A stretch of 64,000 nt of DNA. Source: an uncultured Candidatus Bathyarchaeia archaeon. Lineage in GTDB: Archaea; Thermoproteota; CALKCG01; B24. A model generated the notes under the pieces. The model was not told the origin of the DNA, made no database searches, and saw nothing but the letters and a program-made list of their open reading frames with translations. The translations under genes were made by a program, and so were the position numbers. The DNA lies in assembly GCA_964568845.1 (NCBI GenBank), contig CAZMSC010000001.1, positions 32,520 to 96,519 of the forward strand, given 5' to 3'. Shown here in pieces: positions 39 through 59,544 of this stretch (positions within the stretch are counted from its first letter, which is position 1; every line of letters begins with the position of its first letter).

Positions 39-470
39 CTATCCCGTTACTTCTTTAATGAACTCTTCGTAAATCTTCTGAACCCTTTCAGCGGCAGGAC
101 CTGAACCTTCAATAACGCCTTTCTCAGTGACCCTTATCTTATCCATAACAACTATTACACCTTGATCTTCATACAATTTAACAAGTCTCGGAAAAACTCT
201 TTCAAGCCTTTCGGCTAAGTTTTTGAGGCTTAAAGGCCTTTCAGAAGTGTATACTTGCGCTATAACCCCTCCGTTTATTATAAGCCTATACATGACTGTA
301 TCTTTCTCATCCCTAGCATCCCTAAGCGATAAGTTCAATCTATCTGGGTCGAATCCTGTTAAAATACCTGTGTACCTTTTCCCATCTACAGTGACGACTG
401 TAACAGTCTTATTCAAGAGTGAGGCGACCTCCTCTGCAAATTTACTCCTAGACACTAAACCCATCTTCAA
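39..470 (-). CDS. Sm-like (LSm) RNA-binding protein with C-terminal extension
   Basis: Sm1/Sm2-like segment VTVVTVDGKRYTGILTGFDPDRLNLSLRDA...YRLIINGGVIAQV; complete 143-aa ORF ending in TAG. Confidence 0.6.
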   Translation of the reverse strand: MKMGLVSRSKFAEEVASLLNKTVTVVTVDGKRYTGILTGFDPDRLNLSLRDARDEKDTVMYRLIINGGVIAQVYTSERPLSLKNLAERLERVFPRLVKLYEDQGVIVVMDKIRVTEKGVIEGSGPAAERVQKIYEEFIKEVTG

Positions 471-638
471 ACACCTCTTGAGACATCTATTAGAAACATT
501 TCGTATAAATTAAGAGTTATTCTAGATCTTCAACTCCACAAATTTTTTACTATTTTAAAACCGATTTGAAGCCTTCAATTAGAGGAGGGTTCGGATAAAA
601 TTTAAGGGTGTGAAGTGGTGCAATATTACTAGATATAT

Positions 639-914
639 TTGGGTAGGAGAAGAAGGAGGAAGGTTGTACGGACATTTAGGAGGACTATACCAAAGGTTTA
701 CGTATGTCCACAATGTGGAAGGCGAACTGTAACTGTTCAGATAATAAAAGAGGCAAATATTGCCCATGTGGCATGTGGGACATGTAAGATCTCAGGCGAT
801 GTTGCACTCATAGAGGGGATGACAGCTGTAGACGCATATTGCACATGGTTTGATGAAATTGCACCTGGAAAAAGATTAGAGGAGATTAAACAGGTAAATC
901 CAGGTGAAGGTTAA
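639..914 (+). CDS. elf1: Transcription elongation factor Elf1 homologue (zinc ribbon)
   Basis: Basic N-terminus MGRRRRRK, CPQCG...CGTC zinc ribbon, and AVDAYCTWFDE resembling the Elf1 IDVYSDWID motif; TTG start. Confidence 0.65.
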   Translation: MGRRRRRKVVRTFRRTIPKVYVCPQCGRRTVTVQIIKEANIAHVACGTCKISGDVALIEGMTAVDAYCTWFDEIAPGKRLEEIKQVNPGEG

Positions 915-966
915 GCGCATCCGGCAAATCATGAGAGATTACGGAGATGAGGGGTGAAGGATCACT

Positions 967-1752
967 ATGACTATCAAGTTAGGAAAAGTTGAAAAGTACT
1001 TGATTAAGAGGCTTGAAGAAGATGGCGCCCTACATATGCCGCTCATAGACCCTGAAAATGTATCACCGGAAAAGGCTGCTGAAATAAGTGTTATTGCCGA
1101 AAGAGGGGGATCTGCAGCCATAATGATAGGCGGGTCGACTGTAGCATCTATCGTTAAGTTAAACGAGGTAGTAAAGCTCGTAAGGAAGAGTGTTTCAATA
1201 CCTGTAATACTTTTCCCAAACAATCTTTCAGGTATAAGTCCGTATGCAGATGCCATATGGTTTATGTCTCTTTTAAACTCGCTAAATCCTTATTACATAA
1301 TAGGTGCTCAAGTCTTAGGTGCTTCCGCGGTTAGAGAATATGGTTTAGAGCCTCTCCCTCTCGCATATCTAATTATCGGTGACGGTGGTGCAGCAGGATA
1401 CATAGGGCAGGCTCAGCCAATACCCTACGATAAACCTGAGATAGCGGCTCTATACGCGTTAGCTGCACAGTATCTTGGCATGAGGTTTATATACCTTGAA
1501 GCGGGGTCTGGAGCAAAAAATCCGATACCAGTTGAAATGGTTGCTCTGGTTAGAAAAATTACGAGTATTCCCATCATAGTCGGAGGCGGTTTAAAGCGTC
1601 CAGATTCTGTAGAAGAGAGGGTTTACGCTGGTGCAGATATAATCGTAACTGGAACCGTGATAGAGGAGGCTGTGGATGCTGAAAAATCAATACTCCTATT
1701 CATAGATGCTGTAAAGAAGGGTTTTTCTAGAAGATGTGAGAGGCAGATGTGA
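967..1752 (+). CDS. Geranylgeranylglyceryl phosphate synthase (PcrB/GGGPS family)
   Basis: TIM-barrel GGGPS pattern: HMPLIDPE, IMIGGS, FIYLEAGSGA, PIIVGGGL. Confidence 0.85.
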   Translation: MTIKLGKVEKYLIKRLEEDGALHMPLIDPENVSPEKAAEISVIAERGGSAAIMIGGSTVASIVKLNEVVKLVRKSVSIPVILFPNNLSGISPYADAIWFMSLLNSLNPYYIIGAQVLGASAVREYGLEPLPLAYLIIGDGGAAGYIGQAQPIPYDKPEIAALYALAAQYLGMRFIYLEAGSGAKNPIPVEMVALVRKITSIPIIVGGGLKRPDSVEERVYAGADIIVTGTVIEEAVDAEKSILLFIDAVKKGFSRRCERQM

Positions 1753-4700
1753 ATTGAAACGTCAACCCGTTTTAGAGACATCGGTTGAATATGAAGAATA
1801 CTTCAGAAATATAGAGCTTCAAATCAGAGCTCTTTACGAGATTGCACATGAAGCTAGATCTAAGGGTTTAGACCCGCTTCCACAGCCCGAGCCGAAGCTC
1901 TCAGAGGATCTGGCTGAACGGGTAGAGTTTTTAGTAGGACCTAAAGGGGTGGCAGACCGTATAAGAGAACTAAGTTCTACTATGGATAGAGAGGCTTTAG
2001 CATTCAAAGTATCAGAAGAAATCATCTATAGTGGCTATGGTAGATCGGGGTTGGAGAAAAATGCTGAGCAAGCTTTGAGAACCGCCTTAGCCATAATCAC
2101 TGAAGGTGTAACTGTAGCACCTGTCCAGGGAATCTCAAAGGTTTCTGTGAAAACGAACCTGGATGGTTCTAAATACCTAGCTGTCTACTTTGCAGGCCCC
2201 ATAAGACCCGCCGGGGGGACTGAGCAAGCCCTCATAGTTGTTATAGCAGATTTCATCAGGAAAAAGTTGATGCTGGATAGATGGAAGCCGTCTGAAGAAG
2301 AGGTTTTCAGACTTATAGAAGAAGTTAGAACATATGAGAGGTATGTACGACCCTTCCAATACCAAGTTCCGGATAATGTTTTAGAGAAGATCATTCGAAA
2401 CTTACCCGTTGAGATTACCGGCGTTGAAACAGACCCAGTTGAAGTCACGTCTTACAGAGATCTACCAAGGATTGAAACGAACAGGGTTAGAGGGGGAGCT
2501 CTAATAGTGCTTAATGACGGGCTTGCAGGTAGAGCTAGGAAACTTATGAAGATCATAGAATCTCTTGGTATAGATGACTGGAAGTGGGTAGGTGATGTAT
2601 GGAATTCTAATGAAAATGGGGGAAATACAGAGACGATGGAAACAATGTACCTTGAAGAAATACTCGCCGGCAGACCGGTTTTCGGATTTCCATCTAAATT
2701 TGGAGGGTTTAGAGTTAGATACGGTCGTGCTAGAAACACCGGGTTCGCCGCTTTGGGAGTACATCCCGCAACAATGGTGGTGGTTGACAATTTTCTAGCA
2801 GTAGGTACTCAAATAAAAACAGAGAGGCCTGGGAAAGCAGGCATAGTCGCTTCAGTAGATTCCATAGAACCGCCTATTGTGAGGCTTAGAGACGGCTCTG
2901 TGATAAGAGTTGAAACAGTCGAGGAGGCTTTAAACGTCAAGGATAGAATCGATAAAATACTTTTCTTAGGCGATATTCTCGTAAGCTTCTACGAGTTTCT
3001 TGAAAATAAAGCCAACCTACTCGTGCCCGGCTTTACAGAAGAAGTTTGGAGCCAAATGTTTCTAAGCAGTTTAAAGGAAAAATATGGATTAAGCTATGTT
3101 AAGTTCAGTGAAGCCTCAAAAATACCTGTCGATAGGCTTAAAGCATTTATTGAAGAGCCGTTACATATTAAGCCTACCCCACTTGAGGTTTTAACAATAT
3201 CCCGCTTACTGGGGATACCTATCCATCCGCGTTTCACTTACGCGTGGGGGGAATTGACGCTTTACGAACTTAAACATTTGCGGAAGGCTCTCTCAGAGGC
3301 TGAAATTGAACGCATTAATGGATTCATTAAGAGGATAAGGCTTAAGGCAAATAAAGATGTTAAAGTCATTCTTGAAAAGCTTCTTGTACCTCATAGGGTT
3401 TCAGGCGAATGGATAATTTTAGAGGAGGACGGACAGGTACTATATGAGTGTCTAAAACCCGATGCGCCGTTGAATGATTTGAATAACGACGACGTTTTCA
3501 ACATAATATTTACGATCTCAGGATTTGAAGTTAAACCTAAATTTGTAAGCTTCATAGGTGCTAGAATGGGCAGACCGGAGAAGGCTAACCGAAGACTTAT
3601 GAAGACTTCAGTTCACAGCTTGTTTCCAATAGGTCTTGAGGGTGGATTTAGAAGAAACATAGCGGAAGCCGCTGAGAAGAATTTAGTAGAAGTTGAGCTT
3701 GTTCACCGTAAATGTTCGGCGTGCGGTTTTGAAACCTACAAATCCACTTGTCCTAGTTGTGGAAGCAGAACCGTTATCCAATATGGATGCCCAATCTGTG
3801 GAAGACCGTTAAGTTTAGACGCTGTATGTCCATCTTGTAAAACCCCTTCTTCACCATATAAAATCACACGTATAGACTTAAGAAGTGAGCTTTACGAGGC
3901 TTTAAGAAGGGTAGATTCTCCAAAGTTGAAGATTATTAAGGGAGTTATCAAACTTATGAATGCGACCAGAACCCCGGAGCCTCTTGAAAAGGGTATATTA
4001 AGAGCAAAATACGACTTGACGGTGTTTAAAGACGGCACTATCAGATTCGACATGACAAATGCTCCATTAACTCATTTTAAACCATCCGAAATAAACACTC
4101 CCATACATAAACTCAGAGAACTTGGTTATCATAGGGATTTTGAGGGTAAACCGCTTGAAAGCTTAGATCAGATATGTGAGCTTAAAATCCATGATGTAAT
4201 ACTTCCAAAGACTTGTGGCAAATATCTTGTAAAAGTGGCAAACTTCATAGATGAACTTCTTGAAAGATTCTACGGCTTAAGGCCGTTTTACAACGTTAAA
4301 AACGAGAACGATCTCATAGGACACTTAGTCGTCGGATTGGCTCCTCATACGTCGGTCGGCGTTGTCGGTAGAATCATAGGTTTCAACGATGCAAACGTAT
4401 GCTTCGCTCACCCGTATTGGCATGCGTGTAAGAGGAGAGACTGCGACGGAGATGAAGATTCCATTATGCTTGCTTTAGATTGCCTAATAAACTTTTCAGT
4501 CGAATATCTACCTGCCCAAGTCGGAGGTTTAATGGATGCACCGCTTATGATAACCTATAGGATTAACCCGTTTGAAGTAGACTCTGCCGTTCACAATCTA
4601 GATGTTTCAGATAGATATCCTATGGAGTTCTACAGTCTTTGCTTTAAGGAGGCTGACGCTAGAGAAGCTAAGAATTTGATTGAAATAGTTGAGAAAAGAC

Positions 4701-5209: not shown

Positions 5210-5274
5210 GAAGCACTTAAATACTTAATTCCTCTTAAACCATGAGGAGTTGAAGATTGACATTGGTGTTCAAT

Positions 5275-6927
5275 ATGATTAAGATAAGATTTTACGTGCT
5301 ACTGATAGCAACTTTCATATTAATATCTGTCCCGTCTACGCATTCCACCAGCAGTGTAACATATAATAGGGAGGCAACTCTATATTCTACTGGTCTTATC
5401 CTTATAGAAGACCGTATTTCAGGACTTAATGGAAGCGATAGACCATTTACTCTGAGGCTTCCGAGAGGCCTCGCGGAAAATCTGCTGGATTATAGAGCTG
5501 AAACGGCAGACGGTTTAAACTTAAACGTAAGCATCGTTGGGTTCACGGAAAATGAGACTGTAGTAGAAGTGATAGATGTTACTTCTTCATCTCTGACTTT
5601 GTTTTTCTTAGTTAATGGTAGTGCGTTAATCGGACTGGCTGATACATTTACAATATACGTACCCGTCTACCCAGGATTAAGCATGGATATTGCACGGTTA
5701 AACTTCACCCTAAAAATACCAAGAGATGCTATGTTTAAAGACTACCCAAGTGATTTCAATATATCTGCTGGTAAACTCTGGCTTATACGTGAGAATTTAG
5801 AGCCCGATGCTTCTAGAGTAGAACCGATATCTATAACTGGAAGTCCATTGATTGAAGTTGAAGAGTTCAGTAAAACCATTACTGTTTCGGAGCACGGGGA
5901 TGTAGTGGTGGAGGAATTCTACATGATTCTAAACGTAGGCTCATCTACCTCACAAATAGTTTTTAGTCTTCCAGCAGACGCTTTTGAAGTCTATGCGAAA
6001 GACGAATTTGGAAGACTACAATCCTCAACGAATACTGAGGGGGGCACTCTAACATTAACCGTTAAACCTAGGTATGAATTGAGGAAGGGCGACCGATATT
6101 CTCTAACGATAACGTACAAGTTTCCAGCGGGCTTAATGGTGGAACACAGTTTATTCAAGTACTCTCATGGGCTAAGCATGGAATTGGGATCAGCTTTACC
6201 CATAGTTGCTGAATCTATACAGGTGAACCTGAAGCTGCCGAATTACTCTACGATCGTAGATGTTAAGCCTGAAAATTACACGGAGAATAATGGTGTTTTA
6301 AGCTGGATTTTGAAAAGTAGCGATCACACCCCTGTTTTATCTCCGATTAGACAGCCGCCTATTCTCATGTTAAACTATAACTATAACGTCCTCTGGTCTT
6401 CCTTCAAACCCGTTCTCTGGACTTTATGCGGATTAACAACAGTCGCTGTTATATACTACGTATACAGAGCTAGAGTCGCGAAGACAGTTGAAGCCATGCC
6501 TAAAGTCAAAGCGCCAGTTGCCACCAAGGAGATTTCAGAGTTTATTTCAGCCTATGAGGAAAAGCTTAACCTTAGAAGAGAGATGCGTGAGCTTGAAAGC
6601 AACTACTTGACTGGAAACATATCTAGGGCTGAATTCTCAGCGCGTTCTATAAAGGTCAAGAATAGGATAGCCGAACTCGATAGAATGATTGAAAACTTAA
6701 AGCCTACTATTAGACTTGCCGGTTTCCTCGACGAATTGACTAATATAGAAGAGGCCGAGGCCGATTTAAGTATTTGTGATGTAGGTCTAGGCGAGCTTAG
6801 AAATAGATATCGAACTGGCAAAATTTCAAAACACGTGTATGAGAGACTTCTCAACGAATACAATAAACGCATACGTACGAATGAAAATAGGATAAGGAGA
6901 GCCATTGAAGCTATCTCCTCGGGCTAA
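5275..6927 (+). CDS. Ribophorin I (OST1)-like membrane glycoprotein: signal peptide, large lumenal domain, one TM helix, cytosolic coiled coil
   Basis: Signal-like MIKIRFYVLLIATFILISVPSTHS. Blocks ITVSEHGDVVVEEFYMILNVG, LPADAFEVYAKDEFGRLQSS and LTVKPRYELRKGDRYSLTITYKFP parallel ribophorin I blocks [33 protein letters not shown] and [11 protein letters not shown]...GYNLP. Many NxS/T sequons, a TM helix WTLCGLTTVAVIYYVY, then a coiled-coil tail. ATG at 5275 preferred over the track's TTG at 5257. Confidence 0.45.
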   Translation: MIKIRFYVLLIATFILISVPSTHSTSSVTYNREATLYSTGLILIEDRISGLNGSDRPFTLRLPRGLAENLLDYRAETADGLNLNVSIVGFTENETVVEVIDVTSSSLTLFFLVNGSALIGLADTFTIYVPVYPGLSMDIARLNFTLKIPRDAMFKDYPSDFNISAGKLWLIRENLEPDASRVEPISITGSPLIEVEEFSKTITVSEHGDVVVEEFYMILNVGSSTSQIVFSLPADAFEVYAKDEFGRLQSSTNTEGGTLTLTVKPRYELRKGDRYSLTITYKFPAGLMVEHSLFKYSHGLSMELGSALPIVAESIQVNLKLPNYSTIVDVKPENYTENNGVLSWILKSSDHTPVLSPIRQPPILMLNYNYNVLWSSFKPVLWTLCGLTTVAVIYYVYRARVAKTVEAMPKVKAPVATKEISEFISAYEEKLNLRREMRELESNYLTGNISRAEFSARSIKVKNRIAELDRMIENLKPTIRLAGFLDELTNIEEAEADLSICDVGLGELRNRYRTGKISKHVYERLLNEYNKRIRTNENRIRRAIEAISSG

Positions 6928-6969
6928 AAACATTTATATACTTGCCAGCTGTCCTATGTCTCTCGGATT

Positions 6970-7015
6970 AAGAAGGTAAGAAAGAACCTATTAAAGGACT
7001 CTTTCCTACCTTCTT
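6970..7015. repeat. 16-bp imperfect inverted repeat (hairpin) between the ribophorin-like gene and the TRAM gene
   Basis: AAGAAGGTAAGAAAGA (6970-6985) pairs with TCTTTCCTACCTTCTT (7000-7015) with one A/C mismatch and a 14-nt loop. Confidence 0.5.
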
Positions 7016-7045
7016 AAATCCAATAATTTAAAGGGAGGTTGAATT

Positions 7046-7297
7046 ATGGAAAGAAGTAGGAGAAGGCGGCCGGCTACAGGCGGTTTTAGACCAGCTAGAC
7101 CAGTGCCAGTTGCCGTGGGCGGCGAATACGACGTTGAAATAGAGAGCATTGGAAGCAGAGGAGATGGAATAGCTAGAATCGAGGGTTTTGTAATATTTGT
7201 GAAAAACACTAAAGTGGGAGATAAGCTTAAAGTCAGAGTGAATTCTGTCAGTAGAAGATTCGCCATAGCTACACCGGTCGCTCAGGGTGAGGAGTAG
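7046..7297 (+). CDS. TRAM domain protein
   Basis: Arg-rich N-terminus then TRAM-like YDVEIESIGSRGDGIARIEGFVIFVKNTKVGDKLKVRV; GGAGG-like SD upstream. Confidence 0.7.
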   Translation: MERSRRRRPATGGFRPARPVPVAVGGEYDVEIESIGSRGDGIARIEGFVIFVKNTKVGDKLKVRVNSVSRRFAIATPVAQGEE

Positions 7298-7460
7298 AAG
7301 AGGCGTTTAAACTATTTCTAAATCGTTCAATAATGTCCGGTATTTTTCTAAGCTTTATTTTTGCTAAAACTGATTCCTATATTCTCCCATCATAATCAGA
7401 AAAACAATATGATGGAAGAGGGAGAAGTTAAAAATAGTTGATTTTAAGACTATTCAACCG

Positions 7461-8186
7461 TTGGAAAAGAGTACCGATTTTCGACTTGAGGAAGTATATG
7501 ATGTAGTTGAATGTGAAATCGTTAGACGGATTAATAGGTTTCTCGTTGAGATACTTATCGACGGTTCTCCAACCATAGCCTACCTCAACAACACTGGTAG
7601 ACTTTTAGAATTCATGGCTGAAGGTAGAGTGGCCTACTGTTTAAAAGCATATGGTGGAAAAACTAGGCATCGCCTTTTTGCAGTAGATGTTGGAGACGGT
7701 CTAGCCGCGATTGTAGATACCAGGATTCAGATGCGCCTTTTTGAAAAAGCGGCTAGTAAGGGGTTGATACATTGGCTTGGAAAACACAGAATAGTTAAGA
7801 GAAACTGTAGATTGGGCAGATCCTTAATAGACTATCTAATAGAGCTGGATGGTAGGCTTGCATATCTTGAAGTTAAAAGTGCGGTTTTGCGGGATGGTGA
7901 GGGATATGCCTTATACCCAGATTGCCCAACTATTAGGGGGAGGAGGCATATAATGGATATTATAAAGCATGCTGAAGAGGGCGGTTTGGGAATAATAGTG
8001 TTCATAGCTGCGCTGCCAAATATCAACGGTTTTAAGCCGAATCCTAGAGGAGACGGAGAAATACCTAAACTGCTTTTAAAAGCTTACGAGACCGGGTGTG
8101 TTTTAAAGGCGATGAGCGCCTATTACGACCGACGCTCTTCATCATTTTATCTAGATAGCCCAGACATCCCAGTTCTTCTACGATAG
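7461..8186 (+). CDS. sfsA: SfsA family (sugar fermentation stimulation protein A-like) nuclease-fold protein
   Basis: RRINRFLVEILIDG...AYLNNTGRLLEF and YLEVKS motifs typical of SfsA; TTG start. Confidence 0.7.
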   Translation: MEKSTDFRLEEVYDVVECEIVRRINRFLVEILIDGSPTIAYLNNTGRLLEFMAEGRVAYCLKAYGGKTRHRLFAVDVGDGLAAIVDTRIQMRLFEKAASKGLIHWLGKHRIVKRNCRLGRSLIDYLIELDGRLAYLEVKSAVLRDGEGYALYPDCPTIRGRRHIMDIIKHAEEGGLGIIVFIAALPNINGFKPNPRGDGEIPKLLLKAYETGCVLKAMSAYYDRRSSSFYLDSPDIPVLLR

Positions 8187-17676: not shown

Positions 17677-17779
17677 CGGGCCCGGCGGGAGTTGAACCCG
17701 CGACCACCGGGTTACTTCAGTAGTGAAGTAATCCTCTACTTTAAAAGCCCGGCACTCTACCATTCTGAGCTACGGGCCC
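17677..17779 (-). tRNA. tRNA-Lys (anticodon UUU) with a 29-nt BHB intron at 37/38 (intron 17713..17741)
   Basis: Reverse complement folds as GGGCCCG/CGGGCCC acceptor, GCUC/GAGU D stem, CCGGG/CCCGG anticodon stem, loop CUUUUAA, and T arm GCGGG-UUCAACU-CCCGC. Intron BHB: central helix CUUU/GAAG, bulges UA|A and UA|A. No encoded CCA. Confidence 0.9.
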
Positions 17780-37259: not shown

Positions 37260-37391
37260 AAGTTGCGGAAGAAGAGTTAAATATGCTGGTTAAATGAACG
37301 ATTTACCTATTTTAGCTTTAGCATCTCCATAAAATGTAAAGGTTAATAAGATTGAAAGGAGGATACTTTTCCTGCTTAGGGGGGTATGGAA

Positions 37392-39615
37392 ATGCCTAGG
37401 TATAAGACGACGGCTGAAATCCTCAAGATAATTAAGGATAAGGAGCTTATTCGAAAGGCTTAAGGCTTAAGCCTTAGGCCCGAAAGATATAGGTATTATA
37501 GCTCACGTAGATCACGGTAAAACTACGATGTCTGATAGTCTTTTAGCAGCCTGTGGACTGCTTTCACCATCTGTAGCTGGTCAGGCTTTAGCATTAGACT
37601 ATATGGAAGAAGAGCAGCAGAGACAGATGACTATTAAAGCCGCCAACGTGAGCCTTTACTATGAATATGAAAATAGGCCGTACGTCATAAACCTGATAGA
37701 TACACCCGGGCACATAGACTTTACTGGAAAGGTAACCAGGTCTTTAAGGGCGATAGATGGAGCTGTTGTCGTTGTAGACGCTGTTGAAGGTGTGATGACG
37801 CAGACGGAGACTGTGACGAGGCAGGCTTTAGAGGAGAGGGTTAGACCAATACTATATATCAATAAGATAGATAGGTTGATTAATGAGCTTAAACTCACCC
37901 CGCAGAAGATACAGGAAACCATTATTAAAATAGTCAAGGATTTTAACGGTTTAATCGAAATGTACGCTGAGCCGGAGTATAGAAATGCTTGGAAGGCTAG
38001 CCTTGTAGATAATAGCGTAGCATTGGGCTCTGCCAAATACAGGTGGGGCTTTACACTTAAGATCGCTCAGAGAAAAGGCGTGAAGTTTTCCGATGTTGTG
38101 ACAGCTTATAGGGATGGCACTGTAGAGGATTTGGCGAAGACCGTTCCACTTCATGAGGCGATATTGGAAATGGTTGTTGAACACCTCCCCCCACCTCACA
38201 TCGCTCAGAAGTATAGGATACCTAAGATTTGGCGGGGCGATTTATCTTCTGATGTAGGTAAGGCTATGCTTGAGTGCGATGATGATGGACCTGTTGTCAT
38301 GTGTGTTTCCAACATAACAGTTGACCCGCAGGCGGGTATAGTGGCTACTGGCAGACTTTTCTCAGGAACCATAAACTCCGGCGACAGCGTCTACATGATA
38401 GGCGCTAGATCCAGTAGTAGAGTTCAACAGGTGTGTATATACATGGGGCCTAATAGGGAGATAGTTGGCAGTCTGTCGGCCGGAAACATACCGGCTCTAC
38501 TGGGTCTTAGCAAGGCTAGGGCTGGTGAAACGATATCGTCTGTTCAAGACATAGTACCTTTTGAAGCCGTCAAGTATGTAACCGAGCCCGTTGTAACAAT
38601 AGCCATAGAGCCTAAGTACAGTAGAGATTTACCTAAACTCGTCGACGTGTTGAATAGACTTACGATAGAGGACCCAAACTATGTAACTAAGATAGACCAA
38701 GAAAGCGGCGAGTATCTACTTTCAGGCATTGGGCAGGTACACCTTGAAATAGCTTTAACGTTGATAGGGAAGACCGGGTTGGAGGTTGTAACATCCCCAC
38801 CGACAGTCATATACAGGGAGAGCATTAGAAGACCGGCAGGCCCATTCATGGGGAAGTCGCCCAATAAACACAACAGGGTCTTCATAAGCGTTGAACCTTT
38901 AGACCCCCAAATAGTAGAGCTTATAACCTCAGGTCAGCTTAACGATTCCCTAGACCGAAGGACCATAGCCAATATTCTCAGAGAGCATGAGTGGTCTGCT
39001 GAAGAAGCTAGAAACGTTTGGAGCATAGACCCTCACGGATGTATCCTCGTGGATAGAACAAAGGGCATCCAATACCTCAACGAGGTTAAGGACTACATAG
39101 TTTCAGGTTTTCTATCAGCTATGGATGATGGGCCGCTTACGAGAGAGTATGTCAGAGGTGTGAAGGTTAACCTTGAAAACGCCGAGCTACACTCAGACCC
39201 AGCTCATAGAGGCCCTGCTCAGATAATACCTATGGTTCGTAGGGCGATTTACGCGTGTCTTCTATCTGCAGATCCAATTCTATTAGAGCCTATAATGAAG
39301 CTTGTAAGCAAGGCTCCAACTGAAATGGTCGGCGCATTAACCAAGGTTATTACGTCTAGAAGAGGGCGTGTTCTAACGATAGATCAGAGAGAGTACGTTG
39401 TTCAAGTTGAGGGGGAGCTCCCCGCCGCTGAAACGTTCGACCTGGCAGATGTCATAAGGTCTTCGACATCTGGTAAGGCTTTTTGGAGCCTACCGTTTTC
39501 AAGATGGGCTCCAGTACCATCATCTATGCTATCTCAGCTCATAAGCGAAATAAGGAAGCGTAAAGGGCTATCTCCAGAACCTCCAAGGGCTGAAGACTTC
39601 ATGGACAGGGATTAA
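37392..39615 (+). CDS. fusA: Translation elongation factor 2 (aEF-2), coding sequence split: join(37392..37455,37487..39615)
   Basis: Exon 1 encodes MPRYKTTAEILKIIKDKELIR(N). Exon 2 encodes IGIIAHVDHGKTT...DTPGH...NKID...AHRGPAQI (diphthamide His region). The joined length is 2193 nt, giving 730 aa plus stop. The N-terminus is colinear with Sulfolobus EF-2 (MPRYKT...RVRNIGIIAHVDHGKTT). Confidence 0.85.
37456..37486 (+). other. 31-nt bulge-helix-bulge (BHB) intron candidate inside the aEF-2 coding sequence
   Basis: Central 4-bp helix U37450-G37453 / C37481-A37484. 3-nt bulges at A37454-A37456 and A37485-A37487. Inner 10-bp hairpin G37457-C37466 / G37471-C37480 with UUAA loop. The intron carries an in-frame UAA at 37461-37463. 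Confidence 0.7.
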
Positions 39616-40760: not shown

Positions 40761-40957
40761 CAGCCTACTGTATGTATATGAGACTTCTTCGCCGGACTCC
40801 GTTGCGATTCAAGGTCACCTTCCGGATACTAATCGACTCATCGATTAGTATAACCTTTTCCTTTTTAAACGGCGTTCTCCACTCCAACTTTCACCCTCCA
40901 GTGTGGAATATCTTAAACAGTAAAGCATTTACCCAGGTTTCAGCTCTTCTATCTATC

Positions 40958-42007
40958 ATGCGTTATGCGGATAGAGTTAAACGTATTAGAGACATCTTAG
41001 CCAGTGAAGAAGCGGACCTTTTCATGGTAAAAGACCCTAAAAACGTCCTGTATTTAACTGGTTTTGAAGGTGGGAGACTTTTCATAACGCAGGATGATGA
41101 TCCTCTTCTAATAGTTTCTGCTTTAAGTTTTGAAGAGGCTGAAGATTCCGCCTATGGCGTTCGGATTCAAAAGGTACCCGTAAGCGAATCTATGAAAGAT
41201 TTCAGCTTGAAGGTTTTAAACAGTTTTAAACCCCACATACTACTTTACGACGATTTATCGGTTTCAGACTATTTAAGCTTAGGAAACTCAGGCTTTAAGC
41301 TTAAAGACGGCTCGAACCACATTTCTCATCTTAGAAGGAGGAAGGACGAGAAGGAGGTTGAGTGTATGGTTAAAGCGGCTGAGCTGACTGGAGAACTTAT
41401 GGAGGTTTTAATTGAGCAAGCTAAACCTGGGGTTAGGGAAAACGACCTTGCAAGGGAGGCCGATATATTTGTAAGAGCGCGCGGACTTGAGTACGCATTT
41501 CCAATAATAGTTGTCTCGGGTTTTAGATCGTCAAACCCACATGGTAAGCCATCTTTAAAGGCGATTTCGGAAGGCGAGCCTGTGACGATAGATTTAGGGG
41601 TGAAATACGGAGGGTACTGCGTAGACATGACTAGGAGCTTCATAGTCGGTCGGAATCCAGAGTATGAATCTATTCTCGAATATGTAGCCAGTACTCAGGA
41701 GAAGGCTTTGAATTACGTGAAGGCTGGGGTTCAGTGTAGAGACATAGACAAAGTTGCGAGAGACTTCCTCGATAGTAGAGGTTATGGTGAACTCTTCATA
41801 CACAGCCTTGGCCACGGCGTCGGTTTAGACATACATGAGACGCCGTCTTTAAACCCGTTCAGCAAAGACGCACTGATGGAGAATGAAGTGGTGACGATAG
41901 AACCCGGCATCTACATCAGGAAAAAGTTTGGGTGTAGAGTTGAGGATACGGTTTTAGTGCTTAAAGATGGATGTAAAATATTGACATACCACGATCGAGA
42001 TCAATAA
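40958..42007 (+). CDS. pepQ: M24-family Xaa-Pro dipeptidase/aminopeptidase
   Basis: Creatinase-like N-domain then HSLGHGVGLDIHETP and VVTIEPGIY. ATG 40958 (MRYADRVKRIRDIL) preferred over the track's extended start. Confidence 0.8.
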   Translation: MRYADRVKRIRDILASEEADLFMVKDPKNVLYLTGFEGGRLFITQDDDPLLIVSALSFEEAEDSAYGVRIQKVPVSESMKDFSLKVLNSFKPHILLYDDLSVSDYLSLGNSGFKLKDGSNHISHLRRRKDEKEVECMVKAAELTGELMEVLIEQAKPGVRENDLAREADIFVRARGLEYAFPIIVVSGFRSSNPHGKPSLKAISEGEPVTIDLGVKYGGYCVDMTRSFIVGRNPEYESILEYVASTQEKALNYVKAGVQCRDIDKVARDFLDSRGYGELFIHSLGHGVGLDIHETPSLNPFSKDALMENEVVTIEPGIYIRKKFGCRVEDTVLVLKDGCKILTYHDRDQ

Positions 42008-46667: not shown

Positions 46668-47279
46668 TTAGCGAGAGGCGGTAGTTGTAGACGTGTCTGG
46701 TGTCGGAAGCTCCGGAAGTTCTGGAAGCTTCTCCTTAAGCCTATGCTCAGCCACAGCCGCGGCCTCCTCAAGCACCTTCTTAGCCTCTTCATTAGCAGCT
46801 TCCATATCAATGCTCATACCAGTGGCTTCACCGACTTCAACAACCATCTTGCCGATTTCATCACTTATTGCACCTATCTCATAGCTAACTTCAGGTATAA
46901 CCCCAGCCAAGTCTTTCTGAATAGCTTTAAGTATACCGGCTACTGGGACTATAGCGGCTGCTGTTTCACCCAGCTGATGAACTGTCTCCAACCTCAACAG
47001 AGCTTTCTCAAGTGCTAGTTGCGCTCCCAGAACCACTTTAGCCATTTTACGTGCCTCTGCGCATTCGTTAGCGTAAAGTGCTGCTCTAGCAGCATCACTC
47101 TTCATATGGGCGTTAACGCACTTTTCGAAGAGGTCTCTTTCATGACGCTCCATTCTCATAGCTGCTCCTTCAATCCTCGAATACTGCACTTTAAGTCTAT
47201 GGATAGCCATTGTAAGCCTTTGCTTTAGAGGAGTTCTTTCGAATATTCTACCGCCTTTATCCCACTTCTTAATAGACAT
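46668..47279 (-). CDS. cdvB: ESCRT-III / Snf7-family protein (CdvB)
   Basis: Helical hairpin pattern LKQRLTMAIHRLKVQYSRIEGAAMRMERHERDLFEKCV...ARKMAKVVLGAQLALEKALLRLETV and an acidic/proline C-terminal tail. ATG 47279 preferred over the track start. Confidence 0.7.
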   Translation of the reverse strand: MSIKKWDKGGRIFERTPLKQRLTMAIHRLKVQYSRIEGAAMRMERHERDLFEKCVNAHMKSDAARAALYANECAEARKMAKVVLGAQLALEKALLRLETVHQLGETAAAIVPVAGILKAIQKDLAGVIPEVSYEIGAISDEIGKMVVEVGEATGMSIDMEAANEEAKKVLEEAAAVAEHRLKEKLPELPELPTPDTSTTTASR

Positions 47280-47484
47280 TCTAAACGCCTCGTAAATACA
47301 CCGAGACGAGCATTCTTTAATGAATTGTTTAAAGGAAACTGTAGAATAAACATTTGAAAACACATGAAGTTTAATCGTTTCAATATATTTCCACAAGAGT
47401 TGTTGTGGAAATATATAATACTTCTAGCATTACGTAAGTATTATCAGCTTTATTTTTAAGGTAGCTTTTTCAAAGAAATCTTGT

Positions 47485-52645: not shown

Positions 52646-52734
52646 TGGGCCCGCCGGGACTCGAACCCGGGACTTCCCGCTTTCTACGCATTTCTCCGCA
52701 GGCGGGTGTCCTATCCGTGCTAGACGACGGGCCC
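52646..52734 (-). tRNA. tRNA-Arg (anticodon GCG) with a 14-nt intron at 37/38 (intron 52682..52695)
   Basis: Reverse complement folds as GGGCCCG/CGGGCCC acceptor, anticodon stem CCCGC/GCGGG, loop CUGCGGA, and T arm CCGGG-UUCGAGU-CCCGG. Intron BHB: central helix CUGC/GUAG, bulges GG|A and AA|A. Confidence 0.9.
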
Positions 52735-58226: not shown

Positions 58227-59456
58227 TTACATTAACGATTTAGGAGAATATTCTAAGATAAAGGTCAACCTTGGATCTCCGGTCAAGAAGGCCTTCACTG
58301 TTTTCAAAGGTATGTTAAGCTTTATTTGCTTAGAACGGCCATGCCGCCCAAGGCTTACAACTTTAGCATTTACTATCCCTAACGCATCAAGCTCAGCTAG
58401 CAACCCACTTGCCCTTCTCTGCGTTAAAGGTTCTAAACCTATTTCAGAACAAAGTTCCGTGTAAATCTCATATATGGTACCCGTCATCATGCGATTCCCT
58501 AATTCGCGCTTTTTCAAAAGGAAAATGCTCGATAGGAGAAGTTTGGAGTGGAGTGGAAGCGTTTTTAAGACTTCGAGAACTCTATCCTCTTCTATCTTGC
58601 CTTGAGCCGTTCTAACGTGATCCTCAAGAACACTATTCGCGCCATCTCTTTCAGCTATCTCAGCTGAGACCCTTAAAAGATCCAAAGCCCTTCTAGCATC
58701 TCCATGTTCAGATGCAGCTAGAGCCGCGCAAAGCCTTAAAGCGGCTTCGGTATAGGTTTTTGGTTTAAATGCAAGTTTAGCTCTATCTTCTAGTATATCG
58801 TAAAGTTCATCAGCAGTATAGGGTCTGAAGACAAGCTCTTCTTCACTTAAACAACTTAAAACTCTGGGGTCTAAGTAGTCTTTAAACTGAAGATCGTTGG
58901 ATATACCTATTACCACAAGCTTGCCATACTCTGATTCTTCGTTTATCCTAGTAAGTTTGTAGAGTAATTCATCCCCATAGTTTTTGACTAGAATATCAAC
59001 TTCATCGAGGACTATTATGAGAATGGCCCCCAGCATCTTCAACCCATTCTTAAACCGTTTAAAGACTTCACTTGTTGAAAGACCAGTGAAGGGAACGCTA
59101 ACTCCAATGCTCTCACATAAATGTGTCAAAATTCTGTAATCTGAACCATCAGTCCTACAGTTTATATAGCAAATTTTTAACGGGTTATCAACTTCAACAC
59201 TCTTCATTGAAAGATGTTTAAGGACATATCTGGCTACAGCAGTTTTACCAGTGCCAGGTTTTCCATAAATAAATATGTTTGAGCATCTATTTCCCTTAAG
59301 CGTCGGTGCAAGGATCATCCCAAGCCTCGTTATTTGATCTTCCCTATGGGGGAGAAAATCGGGGACATAGTCATGTCTAAGGCACTCCCTATTCTTAAAG
59401 ATTGAAGACCCCTCAATATACCTATCGAAGATATTAGAGAGAGGGGATTTCTCCAG
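58227..59456 (-). CDS. cdc6: Orc1/Cdc6 replication initiator; start codon non-canonical or uncertain
   Basis: Walker A GKPGTGKT, Walker B IIVLDEVD, sensor and C-terminal wHTH. The conserved N-terminal block IFKNRECLRHDYVPDFLPHREDQITRL lies upstream of the track's ATG (59318), in frame back to a TAA. There is no ATG/GTG/TTG in that stretch, only a CTG at 59456-59454 preceded by AGGTGG. Confidence 0.8.
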   Translation of the reverse strand: MEKSPLSNIFDRYIEGSSIFKNRECLRHDYVPDFLPHREDQITRLGMILAPTLKGNRCSNIFIYGKPGTGKTAVARYVLKHLSMKSVEVDNPLKICYINCRTDGSDYRILTHLCESIGVSVPFTGLSTSEVFKRFKNGLKMLGAILIIVLDEVDILVKNYGDELLYKLTRINEESEYGKLVVIGISNDLQFKDYLDPRVLSCLSEEELVFRPYTADELYDILEDRAKLAFKPKTYTEAALRLCAALAASEHGDARRALDLLRVSAEIAERDGANSVLEDHVRTAQGKIEEDRVLEVLKTLPLHSKLLLSSIFLLKKRELGNRMMTGTIYEIYTELCSEIGLEPLTQRRASGLLAELDALGIVNAKVVSLGRHGRSKQIKLNIPLKTVKAFLTGDPRLTFILEYSPKSLM

Positions 59457-59544
59457 ACTTCCACCTAAGTTTTTAATGAATGAAACTTATGATAAAAACT
59501 TATTAGTAGAAGAAAATGTACCTTCAAGTTTCTTTAATTAAACA

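Follow-up and report, generated by a model that had tools for sequence, protein, structure and literature searches.

A predicted bulge-helix-bulge intron in the elongation factor 2 gene of Bathyarchaeia

Introduction

How is a functional elongation factor 2 (EF-2) made from a gene that is interrupted 64 nucleotides (nt) into its coding sequence? The question is raised by a 64,000-nt stretch of archaeal DNA (contig CAZMSC010000001.1 of assembly GCA_964568845.1, positions 32,520 to 96,519; hereafter the window, in whose numbering all positions are given). Its plus-strand EF-2 gene carries a 31-nt insert, and both protein and genome matches place the organism in the Bathyarchaeia. We propose, with a probability of about 0.9, that this insert constitutes a bulge-helix-bulge (BHB) intron, removed from the EF-2 pre-mRNA by the tRNA-splicing pathway.

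BHB introns of archaeal protein-coding genes are known from the cbf5 pre-mRNA of Crenarchaeota (Watanabe et al. 2002; Yoshinari et al. 2006; Yokobori et al. 2009, PMC2738675). Schwarz et al. 2020 (PMC7714728) give cbf5 as the only additional BHB intron reported in archaeal mRNA besides their own case in a 5' untranslated region, in agreement with the original prediction for this locus, which had called cbf5 essentially the sole protein-coding example. A 2025 structure paper on the tRNA-splicing endonuclease (EndA) cites only the cbf5 papers (PMC12397907), and Yokobori et al. 2009 (PMC2738675) list unconfirmed BHB predictions for further genes in Sulfolobus and SIRV1. Narrowe et al. 2018, in their detailed survey of archaeal EF-2, say nothing of an intron, and our full-text literature search found neither EF-2 nor any protein gene of Bathyarchaeota previously reported to hold a BHB intron.

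An EF-2 gene in two frames

Two open reading frames (ORFs) cover the EF-2 coding sequence. The first, of 23 codons (37392-37463), encodes MPRYKTTAEILKIIKDKELIRKA and ends at TAA 37461-63, while the long EF-2 ORF lies in another frame, which is closed upstream by TAA 37468-70 and has its earliest ATG, GTG or TTG at the internal Met37528. The codons of the P-loop (IGIIAHVDHGKTT) lie in this second frame, 5' of Met37528. Deletion of 37456-37486 yields a 2193-nt coding sequence for 730 amino acids (aa), reading ...ELIRNIGIIAHVDHGKTT... (Table 1). The spliced protein aligns with solved archaeal EF-2 without a gap through the junction (best match 8hl1, E 3e-68, reading vRNIGIIAHVDHGKTT). Its match to the Pfam profile GTP_EFTU begins at profile position 3, versus position 20 for the annotated 695-aa ORF, which thus lacks the G1 motif or P-loop. 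The diphthamide-loop motif HSDPAHRGPAQ is retained in the protein. On re-checking, the ORFs, stops, helices, bulges and 31-nt excision described in the original prediction were all correct, and so were the continuous 730-aa EF-2, colinear with known archaeal EF-2 and with its P-loop restored, and the limitation of unspliced mRNA to a 23-aa peptide.

Seven nt 5' of ATG 37392, a G-run (37379-37384) is likely the Shine-Dalgarno sequence. Further upstream, a block that contains a TATA-like element is unchanged in two related loci (L127 and L128, see below) despite an overall identity of about 82% between the loci, and could be the promoter of the EF-2 transcript.

Table 1. Features of the EF-2 locus, with the two intron-containing tRNA genes of the window.
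Feature	Position	Strand	Remarks
Conserved upstream block AAATGTAAAGGTTAATAAGATTGAAA with TATA-like TTAATAA (37343-37349)	37332..37357	+	identical in L127/L128; putative promoter
Exon 1	37392..37455	+	21 codons (MPRYKTTAEILKIIKDKELIR) and first base of the Asn22 codon; homologous to the uninterrupted archaeal EF-2 N-terminus
Outer helix h, 5' strand	37446..37449	+	pairs with 37488-37492
Central helix H, 5' strand, UUCG	37450..37453	+	exonic, 4 bp; partner CGAA 37481..37484
5' bulge AAA	37454..37456	+	predicted cut 37455/37456; invariant AAA in all relatives
Predicted BHB intron, 31 nt	37456..37486	+	phase 1 of the Asn22 codon, seven codons upstream of the P-loop
Inner hairpin h', 10 bp, UUAA loop	37457..37480	+	37457-66 paired with 37471-80
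UAA stop, exon-1 frame	37461..37463	+	intron nt 6-8
Central helix H, 3' strand, CGAA	37481..37484	+	intronic; pairs with UUCG 37450-53
3' bulge AGA	37485..37487	+	predicted cut 37486/37487
Exon 2	37487..39615	+	opens with the final two bases of Asn22, followed by IGIIAHVDHGKTT..., and includes the stop codon
Annotated EF-2 ORF, 695 aa	37528-39615	+	3' part of exon 2
tRNA-Lys(UUU)	17677..17779	-	29-nt canonical 37/38 BHB intron, 17713-17741; Rfam
tRNA-Arg(GCG)	52646..52734	-	14-nt canonical 37/38 BHB intron, 52682-52695; Rfam

One alternative is that the two frames are never joined. Exon 1 would then be a separate small upstream ORF, EF-2 would start at a non-AUG codon (AUA/AUU, Ile23) or at Met37528, and the hairpin would be regulatory or terminator-like. 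Gene callers and the NCBI and JGI annotations do take the 695-aa ORF for EF-2, and the P-loop codons do lie downstream of the insert. A product started at Met37528 would nevertheless have no P-loop, and not one ATG, GTG or TTG occurs between the stop at 37468-70 and 37528. Moreover, exon 1 encodes the conserved N-terminus of archaeal EF-2, in alignment with intron-less orthologues and solved structures, and separate frames would leave unexplained the exon-intron base covariation and the precise loss described below. We consider this alternative very unlikely.

A BHB motif with the geometry of pre-tRNA introns

The RNA around the insert can fold into a hBHBh' motif, in the order h-H-bulge-h' on the 5' strand and h'-H-bulge-h on the 3' strand, which is the arrangement in pre-tRNA. 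A BHB motif is defined as having flanking helices h, on the exonic side, and h', on the intronic side, of at least 2 bp each (PMC7714728). Here h consists of the contiguous pairs A37449-U37488 and U37448-A37489, with two further pairs if U37490 bulges, and h' has 10 pairs. The core of the motif, two 3-nt bulges on opposite strands with a 4-bp helix between them, is found in the window, in 18 of the 18 distinct inserts at the same site in relatives, and at both loci with an insert at a second site.

The window also supplies its own reference for the cut sites. Both of its intron-containing tRNAs, detected with Rfam, share this geometry as had been claimed, and cutting after the second nucleotide of each bulge gives the correct 7-nt anticodon loops CUUUUAA and CUGCGGA. 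The splicing machinery must exist in the host because these two tRNAs need it, and the use of EndA and of an RtcB ligase is implied by the tRNA introns alone. The only matches above the Rfam gathering thresholds in the window are the 5S rRNA and these two tRNAs. ARAGORN, as run, reported zero tRNAs in the window; the intron-containing tRNAs were missed by the setting used.

Inserts at the same codon in related EF-2 genes

Among 5.8 billion proteins searched, the eleven EF-2 clusters nearest to the query (73-95% identity) were all 695 aa long and started at the same internal Met. Full-length EF-2 of 728-730 aa appeared only at 68% identity or below, and many matches at 62-71% were also short at the N-terminus. 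The DNA of relatives came from three sources: species-representative genomes, metagenomes, and contigs that encode ten of the truncated EF-2 proteins. All ten of these truncated Bathyarchaeia genes proved to be interrupted, nine at the position seen in the window (site A) and one (locus L120) at a second site, and the EF-2 genes of closer relatives are likewise interrupted. Public Bathyarchaeia EF-2 records (e.g. KYH37041.1 and MEM… entries) have 669-718 aa, without the N-terminus and usually without the P-loop, and some of these proteins begin within the intron (e.g. VKGGSSPPEDIGII...). Bathyarchaeia EF-2 is thus systematically mis-annotated.

At site A we count 23 loci with 18 distinct inserts of 27, 29, 30, 31, 32, 33, 35, 36 or 37 nt. 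Their position is constant, exon 1 ending in ...CGA A and exon 2 starting with AY, and a single cut rule restores ...(I/V)RN(I/M/T)GI(I/V)AHVDHGKTT in every case. The insert lengths span all three classes modulo 3, and the inserts of 27, 30, 33 and 36 nt carry an in-frame stop, so that only removal at the RNA level would explain the whole set. Immediately upstream of its intron-containing EF-2 gene, and on the other strand, one relative (L122) has a dph6-like diphthamide synthase gene (Diphthami_syn_2, nt 61-771).

These lengths bear directly on translational recoding, by which a programmed frameshift, stop-codon readthrough or a bypass like that of T4 gene 60 would carry ribosomes over the hairpin. 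A stable hairpin directly 3' of a stop codon is indeed also found at the gene 60 gap, and some relatives (for example L003, L004 and L119) have an exon-2 frame that stays open upstream as far as exon 1, so that the two overlap. In the window, however, the frame of exon 1 meets its stop at intron nt 6-8 and that of exon 2 is not open until past nt 15, so that no single frameshift can join them. The frames fail to overlap in eight other distinct inserts as well, and the shift required among relatives is 0, +1 or +2. With lengths of 27-37 nt in all classes modulo 3 and in-frame stops in those divisible by three, no one recoding rule fits the family. A bypass that landed on the matching CGA at 37481 would meet TAG 37490-92 two codons on, and the gap to be bypassed varies between 27 and 37 nt. 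Recoding would also leave unexplained the two conserved 3-nt bulges around a covarying 4-bp helix and the precise deletion in L127. We regard it as extremely unlikely.

Covariation and a conserved intron stop

The case for a spliced intron is strengthened by the pattern of base changes among the relatives. For this analysis, 16 distinct sequences were aligned with the loops trimmed. The alignment was anchored on coding sequence, with the end of exon 1 fixing the 5' columns and the start of exon 2 fixing the 3' ones, so that the register is independent of the proposed structure. Standard pairs occupy 90.6% of cells, compared with 79.6% in shuffled alignments (none of 500 reached the observed value) and 21-47% when the 3' partner is slid by 1-3 columns.

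All three helices contribute. An alignment of orthologous loci had been named in the original prediction as a check for conservation of the insert and for compensatory changes; the insert occurs at the same codon in 18 distinct sequences, which come from independent assemblies. The central helix H is paired in 100% of cells, and its second pair is C-G in 8 and U-A in 8 of the 16 relatives, a covariation that couples a synonymous exon position with an intron base. In the inner helix h', four of the first six pairs have changed on both sides, so that the sequence differs and the pairing is kept. Beside the 3' bulge, the outer pair is A-U in 11 sequences and G-C in 4; it joins the first base of the Ile/Val20 codon with the third, synonymous base of the Asn22 codon. 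An independent MAFFT alignment of the untrimmed sequences led RNAalifold to the same H and h' and left the 3-nt 5' bulge unpaired, with compensatory changes in 8 of 12 pairs.

Each of the 18 distinct site-A introns has a stop codon at its nt 6-8 (CGA A/AG NNN TRR, where the slash marks the exon-intron boundary), so that unspliced mRNA would yield only a 23-residue peptide. This stop forms part of the 5' side of h', where changes in the opposite strand preserve the pairing. Its fixed position looks like the result of selection for early termination on unspliced mRNA.

Probable precise loss of the intron and a second insertion site

The 90%-identity protein cluster of closest relatives, which includes P0001, has a single 730-aa member, P0130, encoded on two genomic contigs of 15.5-15.8 kb (L127 and L128). 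Both are syntenic with the window (molybdopterin oxidoreductase, HMG-CoA reductase, EF-2, SIS, M24 peptidase, MarC), and their EF-2 coding sequence is 85.8% identical to that of the window and 92.7% identical to exon 2 of L004. Alignments of L127 and L128 to intron-bearing loci break exactly at nt 63-65, and both contigs read CTTATTCGAA/ATATAGG, the predicted junction, with a 1-nt ambiguity from flanking A residues. In a rough neighbour-joining tree of EF-2, their lineage falls inside the intron-bearing clade as sister to L004; on account of this nesting, they are most simply read as a precise secondary loss of the intron that confirms its boundaries. A sister genome with an uninterrupted EF-2 had been named beforehand as grounds for rejecting the intron. 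Such genomes do literally exist, and we take their exact junction and position in the tree as signs of loss, not as a refutation.

Two loci, from a Bathyarchaeia lineage with no site-A intron, carry one at a second position, between His28 and Val29 and inside the P-loop motif. This site-B intron (L005 nt 252-293 and L120 nt 938-979) is predicted from a 42-nt BHB insert with 11 pairs in h' and an H in which GCCC faces GGGC or GGGU; it is unrelated to the site-A intron. In the rough tree, L005 and L120 group within a site-A clade. Bathyarchaeia lineages without an intron (L007, L012, L020 and others) lie scattered among those that have one; several gains or losses are implied by this pattern. 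We take the site-A intron to be old within the Bathyarchaeia, with at least one precise loss.

A different kind of intervening sequence is seen in the EF-2 of Candidatus Calditenuis (L023 nt 51-4100; also L082, L083 and L097), whose single 1352-aa ORF contains an intein of about 614 aa in the P-loop, with borders AHVDHGK/CISGDSIV...ANGVVVHN/TTTTDSLL. Counting this intein, the same ~15 codons of archaeal EF-2 are the target of three different intervening sequences, namely the BHB introns at sites A and B and the intein.

Weighing the intron against remaining alternatives

Another possibility is that a small palindromic insertion has made the gene a pseudogene, EF-2 function being supplied by another copy elsewhere in the genome. 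A few Bathyarchaeota have been reported with a second EF-2 paralogue (PMC6143161), which speaks for this possibility. In our genome scan, though, each metagenome-assembled genome had one EF-2 locus, and the gene is intact apart from the insert, down to its diphthamide-loop motif. Across many lineages the interrupted EF-2 retains 65-95% amino-acid identity, and in all of these the insert and both exons remain in register. Purifying selection is indicated because P0130 belongs to the same 90%-identity protein cluster as P0001, although its coding sequence is only 85.8% identical to the window's. Decay of the gene would also not account for the coding conservation of exon 1, the exon-intron covariation or the precise loss, and we judge it extremely improbable.

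An assembly or sequencing artefact, for which we found no supporting point, has a negligible chance and could be excluded as an explanation, the insert being present with lineage-specific sequences in more than 20 independent assemblies (JGI, NCBI, ENA, Logan). A self-splicing group I or II intron was rejected because the catalytic core of such introns needs hundreds of nt, compared with 31 nt here, and no such Rfam match occurs in the window.

Several observations, in addition to the reported paralogues, weigh against splicing or against the strength of the motif as evidence for it. The original prediction had called the motif a textbook hBHBh'; its geometry is correct, but geometry alone is weak evidence. 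A scan of both strands with criteria for a compact BHB-like motif (4-bp H, 3-nt bulges, at least 7 pairs in h' with G-U counted, intron no longer than 60 nt) returned 54 motifs in the window, compared with 31-61 in ten first-order Markov simulations; a looser geometric scan gave 158, again at the level of simulated sequence. BHB geometry by itself thus does not exceed chance. By ViennaRNA, the minimum free energy structure at 37 C uses another outer register (-21.4 versus -20.3 kcal/mol for the BHB-constrained fold, 1.1 apart). In favour of the motif, the constrained fold is within 0-1.1 kcal/mol of the minimum in all 18 distinct site-A sequences. The outer helix is weak, with its 2 A-U pairs in the window, one pair in most relatives and none in L125; many members of the family would for this reason be relaxed HBh' motifs that need an EndA of broad specificity. 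No endA or rtcB gene was among the 40 window ORFs scanned. Finally, the exact spliced protein sequence has no copy in a collection of 15 billion proteins, and hence no transcript-derived one.

Since geometry and fold energy alone are insufficient, the evidence must come from position, reading frame and comparison. Two things do exceed chance: the motif lies at exactly the place from which its removal gives back the protein, and it is conserved in relatives, with covariation. Six compact motifs in the window would join ORFs, and only the one in EF-2 has any support; the other five, which lie inside intact genes or over the promoter region of tRNA-Lys, were rejected. Within the window, the intron hairpin has no further copies as a repeated element.

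Discussion

The DNA shows the motif, the intron-less allele, the conserved and covarying insert and the restored frame; which enzymes act, in what order, and any part in regulation are inferred as follows. The pre-mRNA would fold into the hBHBh' motif around both splice sites, EndA would cleave after the second nucleotide of each 3-nt bulge, and an RtcB-type ligase would join the exons, the intron probably being circularised. Only the spliced mRNA would encode a GTPase with an intact P-loop, and translation of unspliced mRNA would end at the conserved intron stop after 23 codons. The weak outer helix, of one or two pairs, suggests an EndA of broad specificity, as in other TACK archaea, by analogy with the (alpha-beta)2 and epsilon2 enzymes described in the literature (PMC5829648, PMC6379350).

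In archaea, translation is coupled to transcription. As the intron begins only 64 nt into the coding sequence, we speculate that the conserved stop may release ribosomes from unspliced RNA. A wider proposal is that the intron is more than tolerated and acts as a checkpoint, with synthesis of the translocase gated by EndA and RtcB activity and the stop freeing unspliced mRNA, translated co-transcriptionally, of its ribosomes to let the BHB refold, and that BHB introns are, or recently were, mobile among protein-coding sites in Bathyarchaeia. The mobility part draws on the occupation of two sites within seven codons of the EF-2 P-loop and on at least one precise loss. We hold this proposal as a whole to be possible, though on balance unlikely.

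The closest known system is the cbf5 intron, which is likewise a short BHB intron in a protein-coding sequence whose removal is needed for a functional protein. The two also share a patchy distribution with inferred lineage-specific loss, a record of confusing gene prediction and presumed processing by the tRNA-splicing endonuclease and ligase. They differ in host gene and lineage: cbf5 encodes a pseudouridine synthase in Desulfurococcales and Sulfolobales, whereas here the gene is that of a translational GTPase in Bathyarchaeia. The EF-2 intron also lies 64 nt from the start codon, just 5' of the P-loop; all members of its family have a stop at a fixed intron position, and the same gene has a second insertion site. 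Splicing of cbf5 was shown experimentally, while that of EF-2 is predicted here from DNA sequence. The EF-2 intron is not orthologous to the cbf5 family and belongs to the same mechanism class.

Canonical archaeal tRNA introns, with hBHBh' at 37/38, have identical motif geometry and the same cut rule. The EF-2 exons, in contrast, are mRNA, and their outer helix, built from coding sequence, is weak, which leaves the BHB as the sole basis of recognition. The 5' untranslated BHB intron of Haloferax volcanii HVO_1309 (Schwarz et al. 2020, PMC7714728) is also an endonuclease substrate within an mRNA, but it sits in the leader and leaves the coding sequence uninterrupted. In eukaryotes, HAC1/XBP1 splicing by IRE1 and a tRNA ligase or RtcB similarly combines non-spliceosomal cuts at paired structured sites with a tRNA-type ligase that restores or changes the frame; HAC1/XBP1 splicing differs in its endonuclease, IRE1, and in its recognition motif of twin 7-nt loops, and it is a stress-regulated switch, which EF-2 splicing is not known to be. 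Inteins in conserved GTPase and ATPase motifs, such as that in the P-loop of Calditenuis EF-2, resemble the EF-2 intron in occupying the most conserved part of a gene. They are translated and removed at the protein level, unlike the 31-nt insert, which has a stop and cannot be translated through.

For more than 20 years, cbf5 has been the sole reported archaeal protein-coding BHB case (PMC7714728, PMC12397907). EF-2, an essential and universally conserved translation GTPase, would be the second archaeal protein gene family that needs BHB splicing, with host gene, lineage and detailed features all new. Its conservation over a broad uncultivated clade and its two insertion sites suggest that mRNA BHB introns are not a one-gene curiosity. 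The 18 distinct variants and the precise loss form a comparative series for intron gain and loss and, if the introns are indeed mobile, Bathyarchaeia would be a natural system for following the gain and loss of archaeal mRNA introns. EF-2 serves as a phylogenetic and completeness marker, so its mis-annotation has practical consequences. A further idea, at this stage speculation, is that translation capacity depends on the tRNA-splicing machinery.

Other features of the window

The gene for M24 peptidase was considered as a second split gene. It forms two overlapping ORFs in L001 (nt 6245-7496), a JGI contig that carries an identical EF-2 ORF, and one intact 411-codon ORF in the window (40772-42007). 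The split in L001 is an assembly or strain difference, not an intron.

In the Orc1/Cdc6 gene (58227-59487, minus strand), the first ATG (59318) falls within the conserved N-terminal region, and the frame is open upstream to about 59487 with no ATG, GTG or TTG there. This suggests a non-canonical start codon, perhaps the CTG after a Shine-Dalgarno-like AGGTGG; an intron was ruled out, the frame being continuous and no BHB motif being involved.

Two further ORFs match Pfam families of eukaryote-like membrane and division components in this Bathyarchaeia genome: one at 5257-6927 (plus strand) matches Ribophorin_I with 45.8 bits (cut-off 25), and one at 46668-47396 (minus strand) matches Snf7/ESCRT-III with 34 bits.

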